From the UHGV virus genome UHGV-0135963: a stretch of DNA of 42,177 bases, one strand, 5' to 3'. Origin of the DNA: a virus. Shown piece by piece: positions 50 to 42,177 of the stretch (positions are counted from its first letter, which is position 1; each line of letters opens with the position of its first letter). Below the pieces are notes generated by a model. The model saw nothing but the letters and a program-made list of their open reading frames with translations, was not told the DNA's origin and did not search any database. Made by a program: the position numbers and the translations under genes.

Positions 50-2782
50 TCAGGTCTTTCTTATTAACCATGCTTCCAGAGCGGCAACACTGCGTGTAAT
101 TTCTTCGTGTGGAAGGGGGGCAGATAATGGCTGCTGCTCCAGTTGTGCGCATAGCTGGCTGGCGCTACGCATTCCCAGACTCGAGCAACTGCTTTTTAGC
201 TGATGCGCGGCACGCTTTATTTTCTCGCTATCCTCACTGGCGCGGGCAATGTCGATGTCATCGAGAAGCGGCAGGGCATGTTGTGTAAATAATACCAGCC
301 ATTCGTGGATCTTCTCCGTCCCCATTAACTGAGCATCTTCATTGAGTTGCGATACATCCAGCGGTTGTTCGTTATTAGCTGGCAGTTGGAGATAGTGCGC
401 CAGTAACTGACCGAGCACTTCACGCGGCACCGGTTTAGGGATAATCCCGCGAAATAGCGAACTGGTACGCTGGCGCAACGTTTCGTCGATGACATGGGCG
501 CTAAAGCCAATCAAAACCAGCGACGGATATTGCTGTGCCAGTTGTCGGGCAAGCGTAATGCCGTCGATATCCGGTAGATCAAAATCCACCAGTGCGGCAG
601 CAAACGGTTCGCTATTTTGCAGTGCCTCTAAAGCCTGCGCGGCATTGCCAACAGCAACGACCTGCGCACCACTGTTGTTCAGCATCTCAACGGTAATTCG
701 CTGGGTTAGCGGGTTATCTTCAATTAACAGCAAACGTAAACCGTGCAGACACACCGCCTGATTGACTGTTTTTGGCACGGGGGCAGTGGCAACACGTAAC
801 GGCAAGCGTAAACAAAAACAGCTTCCAACCTCCGGTGTGCTGGTGGCGCTCAGTTCGCCGCCCATCGCCTGGGCCAGACGGCTACTGATAGTCAGCCCCA
901 GCCCGGTGCCGCCGCGTTTGCCGCTAACCTGAACAAATGGCTGGAAGATTTCAGCCAGTTTCGTGGGATCAATACCGCAGCCGCTGTCTTCCACTTCGAC
1001 CAGCCATTGTTCGCCATCAGTGCGACTACGCAGGATAATGTGCCCTTCGTCGGTGAAACGCAGAGCGTTGCTCAACAGGTTGGTAATGACCTGACGAATA
1101 CGCCGCGGATCGCCCATTAACGCAGTCGGTACATCGTCGGCAATTTCTGTTGCCAGGTGAATCGGGCGACCTTTCACCCGTCCGCTCATTAATTGCAGGG
1201 TACTTTCCAGCAGCGGGCGCGGTTCAAAGGGTTCATCGCTGACCGAAACATTCTTGCCGCCTGCTTCGATAGCCGAATAATCGAGAATATCGTTGAGGAT
1301 GGTCAGCAACGATTCACCAGAGTCAGTAATTGCGCGCAAATCATCGCGCTGGGCGTTAAGTGCGGGGTTATCTGCCAGCAGCTGTGCGGTGCCGAGAATA
1401 CCGTACAGCGGTGTGCGGATCTCATGGCTCATCGCCGCCAGAAACGCCGATTTTGCCTGGCTGGCTTTTTCTGCTTCCGCCCGTGCCTGTCGGTGTTCTA
1501 TCACCAGTTCCTGCAATTCAGCTGTACGCGCTTTGACCTGTGCCGCCAGCTGTTCGCGGTGGCGATTCAGTGCATGAACACTGCTGCGAAACGCATCCAT
1601 CAGCCGCCCGATGGTGTCCAGCTCCCGCACGCCAGCGGTTTCCGGAAAAGGGGAGTCGATATCACCGTCCAGTAAGCGTTGCAGCGCCTGCGTTTGTTCG
1701 GCAAGTGGACGCGTGACTGAGCGATAAACCACGCGCCAGAGGATCAGAATCAGTGCGCAAAGTGAAACCATCCCCAGCAATAACAGGCTGTACTGCCCGC
1801 GTGCACTGGCTTTTTCCAGATGCGCCAGACCGTGCTGATTACGCAGCTCAATGGTGTCGACCAGTTGACTGACTTCGCTACTAAACTGCGCGAACTGGGC
1901 GATGTTATTTTGCGTGAGAGTTTGCAGGCGATGACTGATTTCACTGTCCTGCTGATACAGCGCCAGCAAATCGCTATATTGGCTAACGGAAGTTAACGTT
2001 GTTGCAACCTGAGCACGAACTCCCGGATCTTCAATGCGTATTTGCCGACGTTGCAGAATTTTCACCGCATTATTGAGCTGCTTTTCCAGCGTTGGCGCAT
2101 TTTTCTGGATCTGTTCCAGCCCCAGATTCATCACCATTTGCTGCACCCGCAGGGCGCTAAGGCGCAGTTCATTCATCTGGTTAACATACTCAAGATCGAT
2201 ATCAATCAGCCGATCGAGTGCACTTTCTGCGGCCTGACGCTGATGTTGTTCGATCAAATCGTAAATCCCGGCCTGGGTCGCTCCGGCGGAGGTTGCCGCA
2301 TTATTCGCCTGACCTTGCGCCAGGCGTGCGATCTCATCGGCGGCGGCGACTATCTGCTGACTGAGTCGCTGTTGTTGCTGGCGCAGTTGCAAACGCTGCC
2401 CCACCAGTTCCCCTTGCTGACGTAACGAACGGGAGATCTCCTGCTCCTGTTGTTCAATAGCGGTGGTATCAAAACCTTGTTCCCGTAACGCTTGCAGCAA
2501 CGCATTAATCTTCAGGCTTTGTGCGGTGAGCATTCGCCCCTGCGCCTGCCACATCTTTTCGTTATCGGCACTGGTCAGGTTCTGCGCGGCGAAAAGTTCC
2601 CAGGCGCTGGCTTCGCTCAACTGGCGCGCCATATTCATGGTAGGAATCAATGCCTGAGTGTTGTCTTTTTCCACCTGGCTGATAAAGCGCAGGTTGTACC
2701 ATCCCACCAGGGTACTGGTCAGGGTTAACAGCGCCATCAGGGCAAAGCCCATCCAGAGTCTTCGGGTCAGGGTTAAATTCAC
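50..2782 (-). CDS. torS: TMAO-responsive hybrid sensor histidine kinase TorS (host gene)
   Basis: 910-aa ORF. N-terminal TM/periplasmic region, H-box (SHEIRTPL), HATPase G-boxes, receiver domain (LLLIEDNPL...DFDLPDIDG) and C-terminal HPt domain. N-terminus [19 protein letters not shown] matches my memory of E. coli TorS. Confidence 0.93.
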
Positions 2783-2789
2783 GGTCGGT

Positions 2790-2880
2790 GCACTTAAGGT
2801 GAATAAGTTGTATATTTAAAATATCTTTTGTTATCAATGAATTAATGTAAGCAGGTCATTATTAGTCAAAATAAAATCAT
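2790..2880. other. attL (B-O-P') attachment junction with Int arm-type sites
   Basis: Sequence upstream of the int stop (caggtcattattagtcaaaataaaatcatttgtcgatttcaattttgtccca) closely parallels the lambda attP P' arm with three arm-type repeats (AGGTCATTAT, TAGTCAAAAT, AAATCATTTG). The core is probably near ggtgaataagttgta (about 2800..2815). Exact core boundary not determined. Confidence 0.6.
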
Positions 2881-3950
2881 TTGTCGATTTCAATTTTGTC
2901 CCATTCCCGTCCACGGCTGTCCCTATACCGCGCCGCCATTGAATCTGATTTATGCCCGAGAAGACGTTGAGCAAACTTATCGCCAATCTGGTTCCGGTAT
3001 AGCCTCGCTGACAGGCTACGCAGTTCATGGAATGTTGGCGGGTTTCCATCAAATGAGAGTCCAGATGCATTTCTCGCCTTTGTAAAATACTTTGATACTG
3101 TTTTCGGGGAAAGCGGATCGTGATGCTTTGATGCGATTATAGTTTCACTGCTGCTGGCCTCCCTGCATTTCTGTAGTGTATCAGCCAATGAGATATTGAG
3201 CGCGTCAATCGTTAGCGTTAGCGGAATGGCGAGTTTAGCCCCTGTTTTACTCTGTTCAATGTGAAGATGGTTGTCGTTTATGTCTGACCATTTCATTCTG
3301 CACAAATCGCCGACTCTCTGCCCTGTAACGACGGCCAAATCCATCGCCAGCCTTAGCCAGATAGGGAGAGGTTCGGCTGCATGGTAAATCTCGACATACT
3401 CATTAGCTGTCAGCCTTGAGCGCCTTACTTCTGACTTTGCTGTACGGGTTGCTGTTACCGGATTCGTTGCCACATGCCCCTCGGCTATTGCTTCACGAAA
3501 AACGTCAACAAGGGTTGACCTGATTAATTTTGCGGAAGCTGCTTTACCTTCCGCTACGTAGGTGTTTAGCATTGCTGCCACATCTTTCGTTGATATGTCA
3601 GTGAGCGGTTTGTCCGGCAATTTTCTTCGGATTGCCCTGATTTTGCTGGCGTAGTCGAGTAGAGTTTTCGGCCTGATCCCCCTTTCGGTGAGGATTCTTT
3701 CATATCGGTCAAGCCACACATGAAGAGTGATTGCGTCACCGCCTTTAATTCTGTCTATCAGTGATTTGCGTCCGCTGTCTGAGAGTAACTCAATATTGGC
3801 CTGTATTGCTTCAGTGATTGCTATCCTCCTGTCTCGGCCTAATCCAAACTCTTTACCCGTCCTTGGGTCCCTGTAGCAGTAATATCCATTGTTTCTTATA
3901 TAAAGGTTAGGGGGTAAATCCCGGCGCTCATGACTTCGCCTTCTTCCCAT
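2877..3950 (-). CDS. int: Tyrosine integrase, lambda Int family
   Basis: 357 aa; N-terminus MGRRRSHERRDLPPNLYIRNNGYYCYRDPRTGKEFGLGRDRRIA is near-identical to lambda Int as I recall it. C-terminal catalytic region (HELRSLSARLY) conserved. Stop overlaps the P' arm. Confidence 0.93.
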   Translation of the reverse strand: MGRRRSHERRDLPPNLYIRNNGYYCYRDPRTGKEFGLGRDRRIAITEAIQANIELLSDSGRKSLIDRIKGGDAITLHVWLDRYERILTERGIRPKTLLDYASKIRAIRRKLPDKPLTDISTKDVAAMLNTYVAEGKAASAKLIRSTLVDVFREAIAEGHVATNPVTATRTAKSEVRRSRLTANEYVEIYHAAEPLPIWLRLAMDLAVVTGQRVGDLCRMKWSDINDNHLHIEQSKTGAKLAIPLTLTIDALNISLADTLQKCREASSSETIIASKHHDPLSPKTVSKYFTKARNASGLSFDGNPPTFHELRSLSARLYRNQIGDKFAQRLLGHKSDSMAARYRDSRGREWDKIEIDK

Positions 3951-4441: not shown

Positions 4442-4723
4442 TTAATCATCTATATGTTTTGTACAGAGAGGGCAAGTATCGTTTCCACCGTACTCGTGAT
4501 AATAATTTTGCACGGTATCAGTCATTTCTCGCACATTGCAGAATGGGGATTTGTCTTCAGTAGACTTATAAACCTTCATGGAATATTTGTATGCCGACTC
4601 TATATCTATACCTTCATCTACATAAACACCTTCGTGATGTCTGCATGGAGACAAGACACCGGATCTGCACAACATTGATAACGCCCAATCTTTTTGCTCA
4701 GACTCTAACTCATTGATACGCAT
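4442..4723 (-). CDS. Ea8.5-like cysteine-rich protein (putative zinc-binding)
   Basis: 93 aa with Cys/His cluster (C19, C27, HH, FCNV, CPLC). Size and position match lambda Ea8.5. Identity recalled, not verified. Confidence 0.55.
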   Translation of the reverse strand: MRINELESEQKDWALSMLCRSGVLSPCRHHEGVYVDEGIDIESAYKYSMKVYKSTEDKSPFCNVREMTDTVQNYYHEYGGNDTCPLCTKHIDD

Positions 4724-4914
4724 TTATAAACTCCTTGCAATGTATGTCGTTTCAGCTAAACGGTATCAGCAATGTTTATGTAAAGAAACAGTAAGATAAT
4801 ACTCAACCCGATGTTTGAGTACGGTCATCATCTAACACTACAGACTCTGGCATCGCTGTGAAGACGACGCGAAATTCAGCATTTTCACAAGCGTTATCTT
4901 TTACAAAACCGATC

Positions 4915-5607
4915 TCACTCTCCTTTGATGCGAATGCCAGCGGCACGGGAATCATTCCATCGCTTTACTTCTTCACGAATTACGTCAATGCATTCTTTCG
5001 AATCCATTAGGTAATCTTCATCAAAAAGCCTTTCCTGTTCGTTTTCTATCGCAACAATGATTGCTTCAACTAACTTTTGTGCCTGAGAACCACTTTCTAA
5101 CTCTGCAATGCGCTTCTCTGCGGCTTCCAGCTTCTCGCGCATATCGTCAACGTACTCGACCAGAGATCCGCCAGCAGGAATTTCGCACTCCTCGACCAGT
5201 TGGAAGTAGATATCAGCTGCGGCCCGTGTGTTGCTATGCCTAGCGTCGCCCATCTCACCTTCACGAAGAGCATCGCGTTCGGCGGTAAGATTGGCTATCT
5301 TGCTGTCTTTGCCTTCCAGTTCAACGCGCAGCTTCCCTACCGTTAGCGCAATATCCTCGTTCTCCTGGTCACGGCGTTTTATGTATTGCTGGTTTCTTTC
5401 CCGTTCATCCAGTAGTGCCAAAGCAATCTTTGGATTAAAGGCAGCAATAAATTCAGCGTTGTTTTTCAGAACGTGTTGCGCAATGGCCTGACTACTTAGT
5501 CGGACCTCATAACCACGTGCGCCACGGTGTGGTTTATATGAGTCCCAGTCTCCCCACGTTGCTTTCTCTGCCGCCTCACGCAGTGCCTGATAGTCAATCT
5601 TGCTCAT
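4915..5607 (-). CDS. Ead/Ea22-like protein
   Basis: 230 aa, acidic with coiled-coil segments. Position downstream of ea8.5. 4-bp start/stop overlap with the upstream gene. Confidence 0.55.
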   Translation of the reverse strand: MSKIDYQALREAAEKATWGDWDSYKPHRGARGYEVRLSSQAIAQHVLKNNAEFIAAFNPKIALALLDERERNQQYIKRRDQENEDIALTVGKLRVELEGKDSKIANLTAERDALREGEMGDARHSNTRAAADIYFQLVEECEIPAGGSLVEYVDDMREKLEAAEKRIAELESGSQAQKLVEAIIVAIENEQERLFDEDYLMDSKECIDVIREEVKRWNDSRAAGIRIKGE

Positions 5608-16913: not shown

Positions 16914-17324
16914 GTGAAGCAAACAATATTCCTCCGAACTAAGCAACAACAGCAAGCCGCAATCAACGCCATCCTCGCAACTCCTCTCGATAAAGACAAG
17001 CCAGTCACCATCCGCATTACTGACTACAAGCGCAACCTTGACCAGAACGCAAAATTTCACGCGATGCTGGCGGATATCGCTTGTCAGGTTCAATGGTGCG
17101 GCAAATGGTTAAAACCAGAGCAATGGAAGGTTTTGTTGATAAGCGGTCATGCAGTGGCAACAAAGCAGGAAGCTGATGTTTTGCCCGGGCTTGAAGGCGA
17201 ATACGTCAACATTCGCGAAAGCAGCGCGCAGATGAGTGTGAAGCGTATGGCAAGTCTGATTGAGTACACGACAGCATGGGCTATTGGTCAGGGTGTCAGA
17301 TTTACCGACAGGAGGTACGAATGA
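16914..17324 (+). CDS. ninB: NinB (Orf-family recombination mediator)
   Basis: 136 aa. [31 protein letters not shown] parallels lambda NinB (SLDQNRKLWACLGDVSRQVEWHGRWLDAESWK). GTG start with AAGGAG RBS. Confidence 0.8.
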
Positions 17325-36494: not shown

Positions 36495-36818
36495 TTAATC
36501 ATCCATGGATGGATTGAGATTATCTCGTGTTGATGTGGCGATTTGTCCTACATTTCTAAGCCAAGATTTCAAATCCTTGATATTGTCATTGATTTCATGA
36601 ATATCTTCTTTTTTTAATCTGTTAATATTATTTTCAATAATTTCAATGGATTGCTCAATATCAGATATAGTGAATGATAGTTTGTTCTTCTCATCTTTTA
36701 TTGAGTTTTTAAGTGCTTCGTTCTCAGTCTTGAGGTCAGATATCTTTTGTTTTAAAGATGCCAGTTGGTACTGAACCACAATGAGTGCGATAGCTATCAC
36801 GATAACTGTTGTATACAC
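36495..36818 (-). CDS. Small membrane-anchored coiled-coil protein (107 aa); third gene of accessory cassette
   Basis: N-terminal TM helix (TTVIVIAIALIVVQY) followed by heptad-like coiled coil. Strongly AT-rich. Convergent with gp16. Confidence 0.55.
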   Translation of the reverse strand: MYTTVIVIAIALIVVQYQLASLKQKISDLKTENEALKNSIKDEKNKLSFTISDIEQSIEIIENNINRLKKEDIHEINDNIKDLKSWLRNVGQIATSTRDNLNPSMDD

Positions 36819-36840
36819 ACCAACCTCCTTAGTTGATATT

Positions 36841-37260
36841 TTATTTGTATGAAATCAACGAGTTAAGCTCCCTCTCATTTAGAGATTGGAATCTTTTTTC
36901 AGTTATATCAATGATGGTTGGCAATAGTTTTTTTACCTTCTCATGACCATCAGGTTTAATGATAGCAATGATCTGGATATGAATTGGATATGTGTTGTGT
37001 ACCGCAAATATCAAAAAGTTATCGCTAACTCTACGATGTATTGGCGTTGTTTTTAACCAAGGATCATCTACTCCAGGGATCCTGATGTGCGACTTGTAAA
37101 TTCCCGATAAGACGGCGTGATGGTTTCTCTCAAACCCACCAATCTTACCAAGATAAGCTGAAACGGTGCCTCTGTTTTTGTAGTTTGCAAGAGCCTTCGC
37201 AAAGTATTGTTCTAATGGTCCAGCCGCTGCATCTACAACAATGCTTATGCGGTTTTCCAT
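36841..37260 (-). CDS. YafO-like toxin-domain protein (139 aa); second gene of accessory cassette
   Basis: C-terminal region FLIFAVHNTYPIHIQIIAIIKPDGHEK resembles the YafO core (HLVYC...AWLLIAILKPEPHK) as I recall it. Needs profile search. Confidence 0.55.
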   Translation of the reverse strand: MENRISIVVDAAAGPLEQYFAKALANYKNRGTVSAYLGKIGGFERNHHAVLSGIYKSHIRIPGVDDPWLKTTPIHRRVSDNFLIFAVHNTYPIHIQIIAIIKPDGHEKVKKLLPTIIDITEKRFQSLNERELNSLISYK

Positions 37261-37844
37261 TTTGGTGCTTCCATGCCAAATCTTTTATGTGAATCTTCAA
37301 CTGATTTCTTGAATGAAGCCAACTCTTCTTCAGTGAACTCTTCAGGTTCAGCATATGATAGTGGTATGTGCTGCATTGCTAGCGTCACAAGCCCCATAGT
37401 TAGCCTTTTGTATTCTATAAAAGTATTTATTGAGTGGTTTTTCATTGTTGTAAGAGTTGACATATGGGGCTTCCACGCATCGCTGTTCTCAGCGATGAAG
37501 AAGGTATACAACAGTTTCGCGATACCATAATCAAGCTTAGATATCTGATCGCTCAACATATCTACATCGTCATGTTGAATATCAAGTGAGGAAATATCTT
37601 CTTCCGTACCATTACTTAATATGTCAATGAATGTAATGTACTTTTTGCAAACTTCCTCTACAGGTGACATAACGCAGTAGATCTTGCTAAGAGCTTCAGA
37701 AGCCTGTTTTTTAGACAAAGAGCCGCTATGACTGCGATCAAAGTCTGAAATTGAACGCTCGATAGATGTTGATATGTCAGAAAAAACGTTTTCAATTTTT
37801 CCTGGCTCTTGATTCAGGATGGCCATAACGCCTATCTCAATCAC
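37245..37844 (-). CDS. Acidic hypothetical protein (193-199 aa); first gene of accessory cassette
   Basis: No TM or recognisable motif. Start is either GTG (37844) or ATG (37826). 16-nt overlap with the downstream gene. Confidence 0.55.
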   Translation of the reverse strand: MIEIGVMAILNQEPGKIENVFSDISTSIERSISDFDRSHSGSLSKKQASEALSKIYCVMSPVEEVCKKYITFIDILSNGTEEDISSLDIQHDDVDMLSDQISKLDYGIAKLLYTFFIAENSDAWKPHMSTLTTMKNHSINTFIEYKRLTMGLVTLAMQHIPLSYAEPEEFTEEELASFKKSVEDSHKRFGMEAPKWKTA

Positions 37845-37886
37845 AATGTATACCTTGTTATTTTATATCAACGAACAAACATTGAC

Positions 37887-38135
37887 CTATCTGGTCTCGT
37901 ACATTTTTTTCAGGGTTTCAAACACCATCTTCTTAACAATTTCTGCTTGCTGATCAGCCATGCGTTCTGCTTCGTCGCGGTAACCTGCAATCGGCGATGG
38001 CTTTGAGAGAGCATCCTGAACGATTTGTAATAACTCAGAGTTCATTGACCTTCCGTTAGCCTCGGCTCTTAATTTCAATTTTTCTCTTACTTCCAAAGGC
38101 ATACGGAAGTTAAAGTGCGGCTCATCTCTAGCCAT
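37887..38135 (-). CDS. mnt: Mnt repressor (ribbon-helix-helix)
   Basis: 82 aa MARDEPHFNFRMPLEVREKLKLRAEANGRSMNSELLQIVQDALSKPSP... is near-identical to P22 Mnt as recalled. Confidence 0.85.
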   Translation of the reverse strand: MARDEPHFNFRMPLEVREKLKLRAEANGRSMNSELLQIVQDALSKPSPIAGYRDEAERMADQQAEIVKKMVFETLKKMYETR

Positions 38136-38158
38136 GCCATCACTCCAAGTTAGTATCT

Positions 38159-38443
38159 CTAACTTTCGTCTTTATTGTTGCCATACATGCATTTCAATTT
38201 CTCAACATCATGTTCAAGATCTATCAATCGTGATGCTATAGTTGCAAGGTCTAGTGCTTGAATGTGTTTATTTTTTTCGGTCCATGCTTCAAGTGCCGCG
38301 ACCATCTCAGCATTTAATGAACGAGAATTAGCCTCAGCCAGTTCAATAAGACGTTCCTTTATCTCTACAGGAAGCCTCAGATTCACTTGAGGGTTTTTGT
38401 ACTTACGATCAGACATCGGCACATCCTGAATAATTTTTACCAC
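38159..38443 (-). CDS. Second Mnt-like ribbon-helix-helix repressor
   Basis: 94 aa. RHH core PQVNLRLPVEIKERLIELAEANSRSLNAEMVAALEAW with C-terminal coiled coil. 23 bp upstream of mnt. Confidence 0.7.
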   Translation of the reverse strand: MVKIIQDVPMSDRKYKNPQVNLRLPVEIKERLIELAEANSRSLNAEMVAALEAWTEKNKHIQALDLATIASRLIDLEHDVEKLKCMYGNNKDES

Positions 38444-38520
38444 AGGATATGTAGGTATCTATTGACTATCAATGCGTACCTAAATACTATGTATGCGTAC
38501 CACATACAACGGAGGATGCA
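38444..38520. promoter_or_regulatory. Divergent promoter/operator region of the immI-like locus
   Basis: Palindrome ATTGACTATCAAT and direct repeat ATGCGTACC x2 between divergent RHH genes. GGAGG RBS for arc. Confidence 0.5.
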
Positions 38521-38661
38521 ATGAAGGTAAAAACACTGCGTATGCCAGAGAAGCTAGAAAAAATTCTTGAAGAAAAAGCAAAGGAAGAGTGTCGCTCATT
38601 CAGCGCAGAAGTAATTAAACGGGTGCTGGACAGCCTGAAGAGGGAGGGGGTAACGGTATGA
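38521..38661 (+). CDS. arc: Arc-like ribbon-helix-helix repressor (46 aa)
   Basis: Hand-translated MKVKTLRMPEKLEKILEEKAKEECRSFSAEVIKRVLDSLKREGVTV. RHH pattern comparable to P22 Arc. Position upstream of ant. Confidence 0.6.
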   Translation: MKVKTLRMPEKLEKILEEKAKEECRSFSAEVIKRVLDSLKREGVTV

Positions 38662-38861
38662 GTAAAGAATGTTGTTTCTGCGGCATTAGCGAATCAGACG
38701 CTGATCAAACATACATTTACTCTAAAGAAACAGGTCGGATGCTGTGTAGTGACTGCGTGTTGGACATCATAAGATACAAGCATCTTGGATGTTCTGCCAG
38801 CATTAGCAATATAGGTGAAGTATATGAAGGGAAAGATATAACTGATAGAGCAGAAAGTTGA
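38658..38861 (+). CDS. Small Cys-rich protein (67 aa, CxxC...CxxC zinc-ribbon-like)
   Basis: CCFCG...CSDC motifs. Start overlaps arc stop (ATGA). Confidence 0.45.
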   Translation: MSKECCFCGISESDADQTYIYSKETGRMLCSDCVLDIIRYKHLGCSASISNIGEVYEGKDITDRAES

Positions 38862-38924
38862 AGCCCCAACTGCGGCAACAGTCAGGGCTTCGGTATCGTA
38901 AAACCACGCATAGGAATTAACGAC

Positions 38925-39848
38925 ATGAAAAGTATAGCAACAGCAGTATCTACTATCAATGTGCCATTCCACGGCGCAGAGCTTTATGTTGTCAATCACA
39001 ACGGCGAACCGTACACCCCAATGAAACCTATCGTTGAGGGAATGGGGCTAGACTGGAAATCTCAACATAAGAAGATTTCTCAACGCTTCTCGAAGGGTAT
39101 GGTGGAAATCACCATACCTTCTGCCGGTGGGGTGCAAGCCATGATTTGTATGGCTTTACGAAAATTGGCAGCTTGGTTGAACAGCATCAGTCCTAACAAA
39201 GTCCGCCCTGAAATCCGCGACAAGGTAATCCAGTATCAGGAAGAGTGTGACGATGTGCTCTACGAGTACTGGACTAAAGGCCATGTAGTTAACCCACGCA
39301 AAGCTAAAAAGGCGTTGCCGGGTAAAATCACCACTGAACAGCAGGAAGCCATTAAACAACTCGTCATGAGTCGCGGTCAGTCTCTGCCAAAAGAAAAACA
39401 GGCTAAGGCGATGATCACCATGTGGTCGTCACTGAAATCCCATTTTGGATGTTCGTACAAAGAAATCAGTGAGGAGCAGTTTACCGAAGCACTGTCACTT
39501 GCAGCTCGAGTTCCACTTGAAGGTGAGTTCATCGGCAAACAAGAGAAGAAAACCAACGAGCTTTCTGCAAAAGAAGCAAACAGCCTTGTATGGCTATGGG
39601 ACTATGCCAACCGCTCACAGGCATTATTCCGCGAATTGTATCCGGCGCTAAAACAAATTCAATCGAACTATTCCGGCAGATGTCATGACTGCGGTTATGA
39701 GTTCTCCCGTATTATCGATATGGCGAGAGATGTTTTAATCAATCACACACGAGATGTTGATATCAATGAGCCAGACGGACCAACGAATCTTTCCGCATGG
39801 ATGAGACTTAAGAATAAAGAATTACCTCCTTCAGTACATAACTACTGA
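38925..39848 (+). CDS. ant: Antirepressor (Ant-like)
   Basis: 307 aa, in the ant position of the immI arrangement (mnt / arc / ant). N-terminal AntA-like region. Family assignment from position and general resemblance only. Confidence 0.65.
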   Translation: MKSIATAVSTINVPFHGAELYVVNHNGEPYTPMKPIVEGMGLDWKSQHKKISQRFSKGMVEITIPSAGGVQAMICMALRKLAAWLNSISPNKVRPEIRDKVIQYQEECDDVLYEYWTKGHVVNPRKAKKALPGKITTEQQEAIKQLVMSRGQSLPKEKQAKAMITMWSSLKSHFGCSYKEISEEQFTEALSLAARVPLEGEFIGKQEKKTNELSAKEANSLVWLWDYANRSQALFRELYPALKQIQSNYSGRCHDCGYEFSRIIDMARDVLINHTRDVDINEPDGPTNLSAWMRLKNKELPPSVHNY

Positions 39849-39866
39849 CAGATAACCAACGCAACG

Positions 39867-39890
39867 ACCCAGCTTCGGCTGGGTTTTTTT
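39867..39890 (+). terminator. Intrinsic terminator after ant
   Basis: acccagc ttcg gctgggt followed by tttttttat. Confidence 0.7.
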
Positions 39891-40026
39891 ATGCCCAAAA
39901 TTCACCGCAGCAACTAAGCGGCGATGGCCTTGATGGATAGCACTACACAAAAAGTGTAGTGCAAAAAGCAAACAAATACTCACCGTAGCTACGCTGCGGC
40001 GATTCATTGTATCTGGAGCAAATTAA

Positions 40027-42177
40027 ATGACAGACATTACAGCCAATGTGATCGTATCGATGCCTTCGCAACTCTTCACTATGGCGCGTTCTTTTAAAGC
40101 CGTAGCCAATGGCAAAATTTATATCGGTAAAATTGACACTGATCCTGTAAATACAGAAAACCAGATTCAGGTCTATGTGGAGAATGAAGACGGTTCTCAC
40201 GTTCCTGTTTCGCAACCAATAATCATTAACGCTGCTGGATATCCGGTATATAACGGACAGATTGCCAAATTCGTTACCGTGCAAGGCCATTCTATGGCTG
40301 TTTATGATGCGTATGGTGCGCAGCAGTTCTATTTTCCTAATGTGCTGAAGTATGACCCTGATCAACTACGGCAGCAATTAGAAGACCCGGATGGAGCTAA
40401 AAAATATCCTGAATTGCAGATATCTCGGTGGAGGGACGATTGTGATGTAAGAGGGTGGGGGGCAAAAGGCGATGGTATAACAGATGATACATCTGCATTG
40501 ATCTTGGCTGCAGAATATGCACGAGAATCATCCAAAACATTACGAGCGGAAGGTAATTTTATTATTACGGAGACATTAAATCTTCGTAATGTCAGCCTCG
40601 AAATGACCAATGCTGTTTTTACCATATCCCACTCAGGAATAGGGGTATTGCTTGGCGGGGATGCATCAAACCCTAACAACCCAAGACAAAACTTCGGAAC
40701 GATTATCAGAAATTCTGGTATTTCATCTGAAACGACACCGGATATTCGTATTATTGGGGCAAAAGGGCAGCATATAAACATTGAGCGTTGCGACTACTTA
40801 CAGTTATATGCAAATTATAATGCTTCGGTGGCATCGACGGATTATTCAATAGCATACTCAACCTTTAACCTGAAAAAGGTCGATACAATTCATTTTCTTG
40901 GAGTTGAGAACGGATGGATAAATGAAAACTATTTTTATCTGAATCGTACGAATAATATCATTTTCGCTGATAATCCATATCATCATAACCACAATAAGTT
41001 TTATGGTGGAACTATGGAGGGGGCAGGTAAAATTGATATTCAAAGAGGTGATAACAATTACTTCTACGGGTTTCGTTTTGAACGATATCCATCATCCCCA
41101 ACTAACCAACAGTTGATAATTAACTTTGGTGAATATACGTGGAATAACTCAATTGAGGCTTCATGGTTAAGTTCTCCTTACTATACAAATGAACCATACA
41201 ATCCATCACCTTACACTTATGTAGAGGTAACTGATAATGGCAAGGGGAATGCAGTATTTCATGTTCAGGAAAATATATCCGATGAAGTAACATTGTTTTC
41301 TTTAAATGCTAACACCCCATTTATATCCAGTGCCAACAATGGAGAAGTTGGTGCATTAGCATATCAAACAGATGTAGATGGTTTATATAATATCCGTCAC
41401 CTAGTTTCTTCTAAGTTTGCTTTTATGCGGAATTTTGGGTTGTTATGGGAATCTGGAGATGTACCAGTAAGAAATGGTGATATGTTTACATTCTCAGCAG
41501 ATACGGCATCGTTTCGCATTTACCTGTATGCATTAGATGGAGATGGGAATGTCATAACTTCACAAACAGAAGCAATAACTTCTTCTATGCAATGGGATTC
41601 ATCTAACCATAGATATGCTACTGTTGCTAACATTTCTTCCATTAAGATCAGGATTAATAATGAAGGGGTTCCAGTTAGTGCAATTCGTTTAGCTGTGTAT
41701 TCTGGTGGTAATGTAGCGAATACTGCATTTTCATGGCTATGCTTAACTGGTAGATATTACAAAAATAGCACATCCTTGCCAAGGAAAAGCAAAGATAACT
41801 TCACCTTAAAACAAGGAAAAGCAATTACTTATTATAGTGATACTGATATTAGTATGGCTAACATTGGTTCAGGAATTACCTGTTATAAAACCGATTTATC
41901 TGAAATCAAAATTAATCTTGTAAGGGGCAGGTATGTAGTGAAATCAATTTCAGGCAGTGAAATATATGTATACCAAGGAACAGTCACTTATTACCCTCCA
42001 TTCAGTGATGTCAAATTGGTATATACGGATGGGGTTGAAAATAAATTATTAGATGTGCAAAACATCTCTTCAGGAAAGATTACTCTTGCAGATACAGTAC
42101 CATCAGCTATATCTGCAGGTGATTTTGTAGATGTTATTGTTACGAAGACGAAGTCTATTTTATCCAGTGCGCCGTAA
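40027..42177 (+). CDS. Tailspike protein (P22-type N-terminal head-binding domain plus divergent receptor-binding domain)
   Basis: 716 aa. N-terminus [58 protein letters not shown] matches the P22 gp9 head-binding domain. Remainder is an AT-rich, Asn/Ser/Tyr-rich beta-rich domain. Stop codon is the last 3 nt of the window. Confidence 0.9.

Follow-up and report, generated by a model that had tools for sequence, protein, structure and literature searches.

In phages P22 and epsilon34, the immI region lies between the homologue of gene 16 and the tailspike gene. It comprises a leftward repressor gene of the Mnt family and a rightward operon that starts with an Arc-family gene and ends with the antirepressor gene ant, together with the antisense RNA sar and its promoter Psar, a terminator after ant, and two adjacent palindromic operators, Omnt and Oarc. 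In phages L, ST64T and ST104, a P22-type Mnt-family gene is retained in the absence of any cognate ant (PMC2629481, PMC8022706). Phage CUS-3 carries an “ant moron” (King et al. 2007, discussed in PMC2629481), and in a comparison published in 2008 CUS-3 was apparently without arc (PMC2629481). Here we analyzed the antirepressor control region of UHGV-0135963, a viral DNA of 42,177 nucleotides (the whole stretch is hereafter called the window). Judged by its sequence, the window is the genome of a CUS-3-like E. coli phage of the P22 family (Lederbergvirus): it matches CUS-3 (CP000711) at ~97% over positions 17200–40496 and at 97.5% identity over positions 37800–39911. Its control region, which sits between the ejection-protein gene (the gene 16 homologue) and the tailspike gene, is of the immI type. 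The locus is thus of a known kind and is already contained in a published phage genome; what is new is an alternative operator architecture, an overlooked arc, and the recurrent stacking of repressor genes.

The explanation that we favor, and hold with moderate confidence as a whole, is that the window carries a mosaic immI. In this explanation, a ribbon-helix-helix (RHH) repressor of Mnt architecture, RHH2, is cognate to the control region, and the adjacent P22-type Mnt is an operator-less passenger that would repress the Pant promoter of foreign phages in trans. The explanation builds on the following points, which are established here: the gene identities, the mosaic joints, the absence of Omnt and Oarc, the conservation and phasing of a 9-mer array and of the promoter boxes, the presence of sar, and the recurrence of stacking.

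Gene content and mosaic joints of the locus

A preliminary description of the window, made from the sequence alone, had listed an immI-type locus with two tandem Mnt-family genes, an Arc-family gene, an extra Cys-rich open reading frame (ORF) and ant. This gene content was confirmed: all five ORFs are present, and all except the Cys-rich ORF (here Cys4 ORF) have Pfam matches (Table 1). The inventory of protein genes therefore stood, and what it had overlooked was the sar RNA on the minus strand (38856–38923). The order of genes is hkcB, YafO-like gene, 199-aa gene, mnt and RHH2 on the minus strand, and arc46, Cys4 ORF, ant and terminator on the plus strand. The locus has the features of a P22-type immI in that a Mnt-family repressor gene diverges from ant, an Arc-family gene comes first in the ant operon, the antirepressor contains the P22_AR_N and P22_AR_C domains, and sar is present; it lacks the Omnt and Oarc operators at Pant/Pmnt.

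Comparison between the window and the immI of P22 and epsilon34 revealed that (i) the mnt and ant DNA is ~90% identical; (ii) in the window, unrelated sequence without Omnt and Oarc takes the place of the promoter/operator segment and of arc; (iii) the window has three phased direct 9-mers and back-to-back −35 boxes in place of the two adjacent palindromic operators; and (iv) the window has a second Mnt-family gene between mnt and the promoters, and an extra ORF between arc and sar.

The P22-type mnt (37887–38135) and the P22-type sar and ant (38856–39848) flank a foreign module. On the left, the homology to epsilon34, P22-type loci and E. coli prophages covers mnt and a 19-nt leader including its GGAG Shine-Dalgarno sequence, and ends at ~38154, precisely at the position of the Pant −35 box in canonical loci. 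On the right, the homology restarts at ~38854 with AAGTTGAAGCCCC, the start of the sar terminator hairpin. The prophage of avian pathogenic E. coli (APEC) E19035 (L012; L numbers denote individual loci) has the same hkcB/YafO/199-aa/mnt cassette, with a Mnt 98% identical to that of the window. Next to this cassette come the canonical TTGACA-ATGATAGAAGCACTCTACTAT-...-TAGGTCCACGGTGGACCTA and then an arc of the P22 type. We propose that a complete foreign control module, consisting of RHH2, the divergent promoters with a three-site operator array, arc46, and the Cys4 ORF as cargo, would have entered at two short conserved joints (~38155 and ~38854) and displaced the P22-type Pant/Pmnt-Oarc-Omnt-arc segment. 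The P22-type sar and ant would have been retained on the right, and the old P22-type mnt on the left, with nothing but its Shine-Dalgarno sequence.

Table 1. Features of the antirepressor control region and its neighbors (window coordinates)
Feature	Position	Strand	Basis or remark
hkcB homologue (107 aa, coiled-coil), end of possible leftward unit	36495..36818	-	annotated hkcB in CUS-3; phrog_5962
YafO-family toxin-like gene (139 aa)	36841..37260	-	Pfam PF13957, 1e-11, 45.3 bits (cut-off 25)
199-aa gene	37245..37844	-	phrog_18235; 16-nt overlap with YafO-like gene
mnt, P22-type (82 aa)	37887..38135	-	Pfam Arc 3e-27 and Repressor_Mnt 2.5e-15; own Shine-Dalgarno, no promoter of its own
Foreign module	~38155-38853		RHH2, 104-bp control region, arc46, translationally coupled Cys4 ORF
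RHH2 (85 aa), Mnt-architecture repressor	38159..38416	-	Pfam Arc 4e-10; phrog_795; AF2 model
Control region	38417-38520		104 bp between RHH2 and arc46
P_L, predicted leftward promoter (RHH2, mnt)	38444..38472	-	TTGATA-17-TATCCT; consensus match
9-mer site A, GTAGGTATC, degenerate	38451..38459	+	within P_L spacer; perfect GTGCGTACC in Photorhabdus L019
P_R, predicted rightward promoter (arc46, Cys4 ORF, ant), Pant equivalent	38462..38490	+	TTGACT-17-TACTAT; consensus match
9-mer site B, ATGCGTACC	38472..38480	+	in P_R spacer, abuts P_L −35
9-mer site C, ATGCGTACC	38493..38501	+	across predicted P_R start point
arc46 (46 aa), first gene of rightward operon	38521..38661	+	Pfam Arc 3.4e-8; GGAGG Shine-Dalgarno
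Cys4 ORF (67 aa, CxxC...CxxC)	38658..38861	+	phrog_7150, 3e-50; ATGA start/stop overlap with arc46
sar antisense RNA, across ant ribosome-binding site	38856..38923	-	Rfam RF00262, full length, 83.6 bits (threshold 43), E 2.7e-17
Psar, predicted promoter, extended TG	38931..38959	-	TTGATA-17-TATACT; 10/12, top promoter match in region
ant, antirepressor (307 aa)	38925..39848	+	Pfam P22_AR_N 5.7e-45, P22_AR_C 2.3e-28; phrog_245
Intrinsic terminator after ant	39866..39885	+	predicted; equal position in epsilon34 and Emek

The ant moron of CUS-3 is essentially the same locus: it shares the left cassette and ant with the window, and two of its genes are annotated as mnt. In the CUS-3 record (L001), the control region, arc46 and the Cys4 ORF are contained, unannotated, in a segment labeled “bsq2 boundary sequence” (4636–5117). 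The arc46 product scores 33.6 bits with the Pfam Arc model (cut-off 20.4) and is 36% identical to P22 Arc, and its homologues in E. coli genomes are named Arc family protein by the Prokaryotic Genome Annotation Pipeline (PGAP). The published lack of arc in CUS-3 (PMC2629481) is therefore explained by an annotation gap in this “boundary sequence”.

RHH2, the divergent promoters and the 9-mer array

The preliminary description had placed the second RHH ORF at 38159–38443(-). The gene itself is real, but its start is almost certainly ATG 38416 rather than GTG 38443, as the sequence around the two codons indicates. An AGGA Shine-Dalgarno sequence lies 8 nt upstream of the ATG, a 1-nt indel between the two codons in CUS-3 puts the GTG out of frame, and transcription from the predicted leftward promoter begins downstream of the GTG. 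With the start at ATG 38416, the control region between RHH2 and arc46 is therefore the 104-bp segment given in Table 1.

RHH2 is 33% identical to Mnt across the full length in a BLASTP alignment that reaches the C-terminal LKxMY motif. It falls in the same PHROG family as Mnt, with an alignment to Mnt that also extends to the C-terminus, and a profile search matched Arc and Mnt structures. The AlphaFold2 (AF2) model of RHH2, with a predicted local distance difference test (pLDDT) score of 78, contains helices at residues 17–29 and 34–48 and a 23-residue C-terminal helix (residues 57–79; pLDDT ~85–90), and the Pfam tetramerisation domain PF11423 (Repressor_Mnt) was undetected in RHH2. The RHH2 reading head, KNPQVNLRLP, is nearer to that of Arc (KMPQFNLRWP). 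Between the window and phage SEN22, the synonymous divergence (pS) of RHH2 is 0.75 and the non-synonymous divergence (pN) 0.075, and the pN/pS ratio of ~0.1 indicates purifying selection.

The RHH2 family is widespread in Enterobacterales, where its members are named “Arc family” or “Mnt” protein. We examined 88 loci with RHH2 homologues, 8 of them on genome contigs (Arsenophonus, Phlomobacter, Xenorhabdus, Photorhabdus and Chimaeribacter) and 80 on IMG/VR contigs. In most of these loci, from Escherichia to Photorhabdus, RHH2 lies opposite an arc46-type gene ~105 bp away, with the same control region between them, and is the sole Mnt-type gene. The same holds for phage SEN22 and the P22-like prophage of O104:H4, which, like many Enterobacterales prophages, share the RHH2 reading head, the core of the control region and the arc46 N-terminus with the window. 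These loci differ from the window in that RHH2 is their only Mnt-type gene, SEN22 has no Cys4 ORF, and the O104:H4 prophage has another small ORF at that position. In SEN22, in the O104:H4 prophage and in the majority of loci examined, RHH2 has these operators and arc46 beside it but no second Mnt-type gene, and on this ground we regard it as cognate to this control region. By analogy with P22, RHH2 would be the maintenance repressor of the inserted module and is predicted to repress the Pant equivalent. The second RHH gene had been viewed at first as an extra Mnt added upstream of mnt; the comparison points the other way, with the P22-type mnt as the odd one. RHH2 is neither absent nor a pseudogene in close relatives, being intact in CUS-3 and in 45 complete E. 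coli genomes. Separately, two IMG/VR contigs (L095, 2501–2754; L098, 471–717) carry an RHH2 gene interrupted by a frameshift; arc46 is intact in both, as is the passenger mnt in L095.

The two predicted promoters of the control region are divergent, with their −35 hexamers TTGACT (+) and TTGATA (-) back to back as TTGACTATCAA. Superimposed on them are three direct 9-mers (rTGCGTACC; sites A, B and C), which are phased at 21-bp spacing. The direct repeat recorded in the preliminary description (two copies of ATGCGTACC) is real and corresponds to sites B and C, which are the only exact copies in the window. Site C lies within an imperfect palindrome, TGTATGCGTACCACATACA (38490–38508), at the position of Omnt in P22 as compared via the epsilon34 layout. 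The B–C pair at 21-bp spacing was found in 69 fetched loci, always adjoining an RHH2 homologue, and was missing in L024 and L070, where RHH2 does not adjoin its own control region. When 15 diverse control regions were aligned, the core (38451–38508) proved nearly invariant as far as Photorhabdus, Xenorhabdus and Arsenophonus, and the −10 elements of P_L and P_R varied but in every case retained TAnnnT. Compared with SEN22, 1 of ~57 core positions differs despite the synonymous divergence of RHH2. The 9-mers are thus predicted operators, which, from their position and by analogy, we assign to RHH2 rather than to Arc46.

A palindrome, ATTGACTATCAAT, had also been put forward, together with the direct repeat, as a possible set of operators for both RHH proteins (Mnt and RHH2). 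The palindrome exists, but we rejected it as an operator, since it is made up of the overlapping −35 boxes, which are invariant across genera. Nothing points to the use of the repeats by both proteins, and the direct repeat is part of the three-site array. Two further candidates were set aside. A 39-bp imperfect palindrome owes its arms largely to the near-palindromic GGTAC core of the direct repeats, and its left site is a perfect direct copy in Photorhabdus. A minus-strand hairpin at 38490–38508 resembles a terminator, but its location is upstream of the P_L start point and its conserved part is the 9-mer.

One could still suppose that both tandem Mnt-type repressors act on the control region, each on one type of repeat, and so form a two-repressor maintenance switch. 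The two genes are intact, adjacent and probably co-transcribed, and the TAGGT...ACCTA of the control region equals the outer 5 bp of the Omnt half-sites. However, these elements are 12 bp wider apart than in Omnt and lack the inner CCACGGTGG. They are equally conserved where no P22-type Mnt occurs (SEN22, the O104:H4 prophage and Xenorhabdus), and therefore do not represent an adaptation to Mnt. Moreover, the mnt allele of the window is usually paired with a canonical Omnt, and where RHH2 is stacked behind another repressor type its operators are absent, stacked genes being generally without local sites. We consider a two-repressor switch improbable.

With RHH2 as the resident repressor, a working scheme of the switch can be drawn by analogy with P22. 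In the lysogen, RHH2 would be produced from P_L and sit on the phased 9-mers; occupation of the strong sites B (in the P_R spacer) and C (across the P_R start point) would silence arc46, the Cys4 ORF and ant, and the degenerate site A inside P_L would allow RHH2 autoregulation. After infection, P_R would fire, Arc46 would then dampen the region by acting on the same short segment, and sar would restrict ant translation. The occupancy of the sites by each protein, the transcripts and any function of the passenger are inferred. The transcriptome paper on Kapi1 was set aside as a parallel, the immI of Kapi1 being of a differing type.

The P22-type Mnt and the recurrence of stacked repressors

A search for the Omnt and Oarc of P22 across the 42-kb window, with up to 3 mismatches allowed, found none, and a search for half-sites yielded one stray GGTCCAC only. 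Because no Omnt or Oarc occurs anywhere in the window, we regard the P22-type Mnt as an operator-less passenger, whose gene is probably co-transcribed with RHH2. Its reading-head residues R2, H6, N8 and R10 are the same as in P22-type alleles. Among 5,426 complete E. coli genomes, 45 have the tandem RHH2–mnt arrangement, as do 11 IMG/VR loci. Across 15 tandem loci, the Mnt protein occurs in 12 distinct alleles, all of which are intact (82–84 aa) and have R2, H6, N8 and R10 unchanged; in the RHH (DNA-binding) domain, the pN/pS of the passenger mnt is 0.03–0.1.

We modestly favor the view that the passenger Mnt is kept for trans-repression of Pant in phages with a P22-type immI, by which it would shield the prophage from their antirepressor. 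A known parallel is the mnt that phages L and ST64T carry in the absence of ant (PMC2629481, PMC8022706); in these phages and in ST104 the entire arc–ant part is gone, whereas the window has a working ant under another repressor. The alternative is that the passenger is a neutral leftover of recombination, that is, a functionless scar that has not yet decayed. In that case, homology in sar and ant on the right and microhomology only on the left would have caused a repressor to be added rather than swapped. This alternative agrees with the position of the joints directly upstream of the passenger's Shine-Dalgarno sequence in independent stacks and with the hypervariability of the region left of mnt (PMC2629481). 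It also agrees with the mnt alleles of the tandem loci, which appear to have been recombined in, their diversity being probably imported in this way, and with the discussion of the lone mnt of phage L as a possible remnant (PMC8022706). It accords poorly, however, with the full length, invariant reading heads and scarcity of non-synonymous change in the DNA-binding domain described above, and with the finding of intact passengers of at least five repressor types in different genera, one of the stacks being triple; no truncated or frameshifted passengers were seen. A functionless scar is therefore possible, and we rate it as the less convincing account.

A third possibility is that the passenger Mnt, instead of binding DNA of its own, acts on RHH2 itself, for instance by joining it in mixed tetramers via their related C-terminal helices. 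The C-termini of the Mnt family have a common (T)LKxMYGKD-like motif and a predicted helix. Yet the C-terminal regions are weakly similar, Repressor_Mnt is undetected in RHH2, and the strict conservation of the DNA-reading residues of the passenger would be left unexplained. We consider direct modulation of this kind very improbable.

Stacking is not confined to the P22-type Mnt. A 611R6/O157-type repressor lies behind RHH2 in L031 and L032, and other Mnt types lie behind RHH2 homologues in L088, L014 (Arsenophonus) and L092/L093. In two loci RHH2 is itself in the passenger position, preceded by a repressor of a third type (reading head SPLGIRIP): L070 has two genes in a row (type 3 and RHH2; 2059–2567), and L024 has three (type 3, RHH2 and P22-type Mnt; 2244–3036). 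The type 3 module comes with an arc and a control region of its own, the latter lacking the 9-mers. In each case the stacked genes are separated by only ~17–23 nt, including the Shine-Dalgarno sequence of the passenger. To judge from these arrangements, the pattern is the signature of serial replacement of control modules with the previous repressor retained. More tentatively, and with the odds in our estimate against it, the serial stack (up to three deep, in L024) may be a growing archive of immI immunities, which would silence the antirepressor promoters of various heterotypic phages, superinfecting or co-resident, and shield the prophage from trans-induction.

Several points weigh against the favored explanation. 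RHH2 is near-identical among the tandem loci (pS ≤ 0.04), and the adjacent mnt alleles differ by up to pS 0.3. The purifying signal in mnt may thus come from recombination with solo mnt genes and not from the tandem context. One allele (L022) has an S-to-L change in the conserved GRS motif, and stacking could be a mechanical by-product of recombination, homology left of mnt being absent. As to the operators, the assignment of the 9-mers to RHH2 over Arc46 rests on position and analogy. RHH2 has the Q/N/R reading residues of Arc, yet the 9-mer is unlike the Arc half-site. Finally, the RHH2 loci were retrieved by peptide patterns that include its reading head, which makes the co-variation of operator and reading head unusable.

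Two side observations concern the stacked loci. In the type 3 module (L024 and L070), the reading heads of the Mnt-like and Arc-like proteins are nearly equal (SPLGIRIP versus APLGIRIP). In three P22-like prophage loci, a gene for a 178-aa ClpP-family protein (PF00574) immediately follows the last Mnt-type gene in the same orientation (L010, 1968–2504; L024, 3036–3572; L070, 2567–3103), with start and stop codons that overlap or abut the repressor gene.

Cargo ORFs, neighboring genes and implications

The predicted Psar has the location of the annotated Psar in epsilon34. The Cys4 ORF is preceded by GGAGG, and its translation is coupled to arc46 through the ATGA overlap. A homologue 37% identical, with the four motif cysteines conserved, occupies the same slot between arc and ant in the P22-like prophage L010. 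Searches of Pfam, PADLOC and PDB sequences, a phmmer search of 1.8 billion proteins, and an AF2 model compared by Foldseek gave no significant assignment for the Cys4 ORF; the long phmmer matches to fish immunoglobulin-repeat proteins were spurious. The spacing of CxxC...CxxC and a treble-clef-like topology are the only points of agreement with the zinc-binding domain of ClpX, and the motif and the low-confidence model suggest a treble-clef zinc finger reminiscent of that domain. As a ClpX-type C4 zinc-binding domain proper, the ORF was rejected: it had no zf-C4_ClpX match, and at Pfam E ≤ 10 one unrelated weak match only. BLASTP against the N-terminus of E. coli ClpX aligned only 11 residues, and in Foldseek 2ds8_B ranked 7 (E 0.57) on a low-confidence model (pLDDT 55).

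In ~400 O157:H7/O145 genomes (for example L007, 2538–2802, and L008, 2582–2846), the Cys4 ORF DNA lies in a Mnt-like/Arc-like/ant module between the lambdoid tail genes L and K. It has a +1 frameshift there in a T-run at codons 6–8, by which the first CxxC is lost, and no PGAP gene is called. A protein from the Logan assemblies (P0001) is a 112-aa in-frame fusion of arc46 and the Cys4 ORF, caused by a small indel at the ATGA, which may be real or an assembly error. Elsewhere, small ORFs of unrelated sequence occupy this slot between arc and sar/ant (L004, 2542–2763; L005, 2588–2809; L012, 2495–2764; L006, ~2997–3170) of 73 aa, 89 aa and 57 aa (GTG start), each of which overlaps the arc stop codon. 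The slot ORFs of Emek/611R6, L012 and the O104:H4 prophage are coupled in like manner. These arrangements suggest that the slot is a cargo position, which would be expressed with ant right after infection.

Behind mnt, the YafO-like gene and the 199-aa gene form a toxin-antitoxin-like or defence-like pair (36841–37844, minus strand) in the slot of P22 sieA. PGAP names the L012 homologue of the former YafO family toxin, and in this APEC E19035 prophage the cassette of the pair stands behind a canonical mnt. The 199-aa gene had no match in Pfam or PADLOC, including none to a YafN-like or other antitoxin domain; from its position it is possibly the partner or antitoxin of the YafO-like gene. From RHH2 to hkcB the gaps between the leftward genes are 23, 42, −16 and 22 nt, and no terminator or stable hairpin was predicted on the minus strand from 38443 to 36495, including the segment after mnt. 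Because of these short gaps and the lack of a terminator, read-through from P_L into mnt is likely, and onward into the YafO cassette it is possible; the arrangement is compatible with a five-gene leftward operon. A promoter-like match lies upstream of hkcB (36866..36838, minus strand). In other tandem loci, the genes behind mnt are convergent and unrelated, and therefore only RHH2–mnt is a conserved unit.

At the right end of the window, the tailspike (40027–42177) has only the N-terminal head-binding domain in common with that of CUS-3, the match stopping near 40496. Since the tailspike differs beyond this domain, the window phage does not carry the K1 endosialidase, and it presumably targets another surface polysaccharide than CUS-3.

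Taken together, the comparison shows that, contrary to the earlier view, CUS-3-type ant regions do have an arc, and it delimits a second class of immI specificity, which is widespread and has a conserved predicted array of three operators. Old Mnt repressors have repeatedly been kept intact behind new ones. If these passengers repress foreign antirepressor promoters, they would constitute a simple, previously undescribed layer of prophage-versus-phage defence, and the sequence of past module exchanges would be preserved in the order of the stacked genes.

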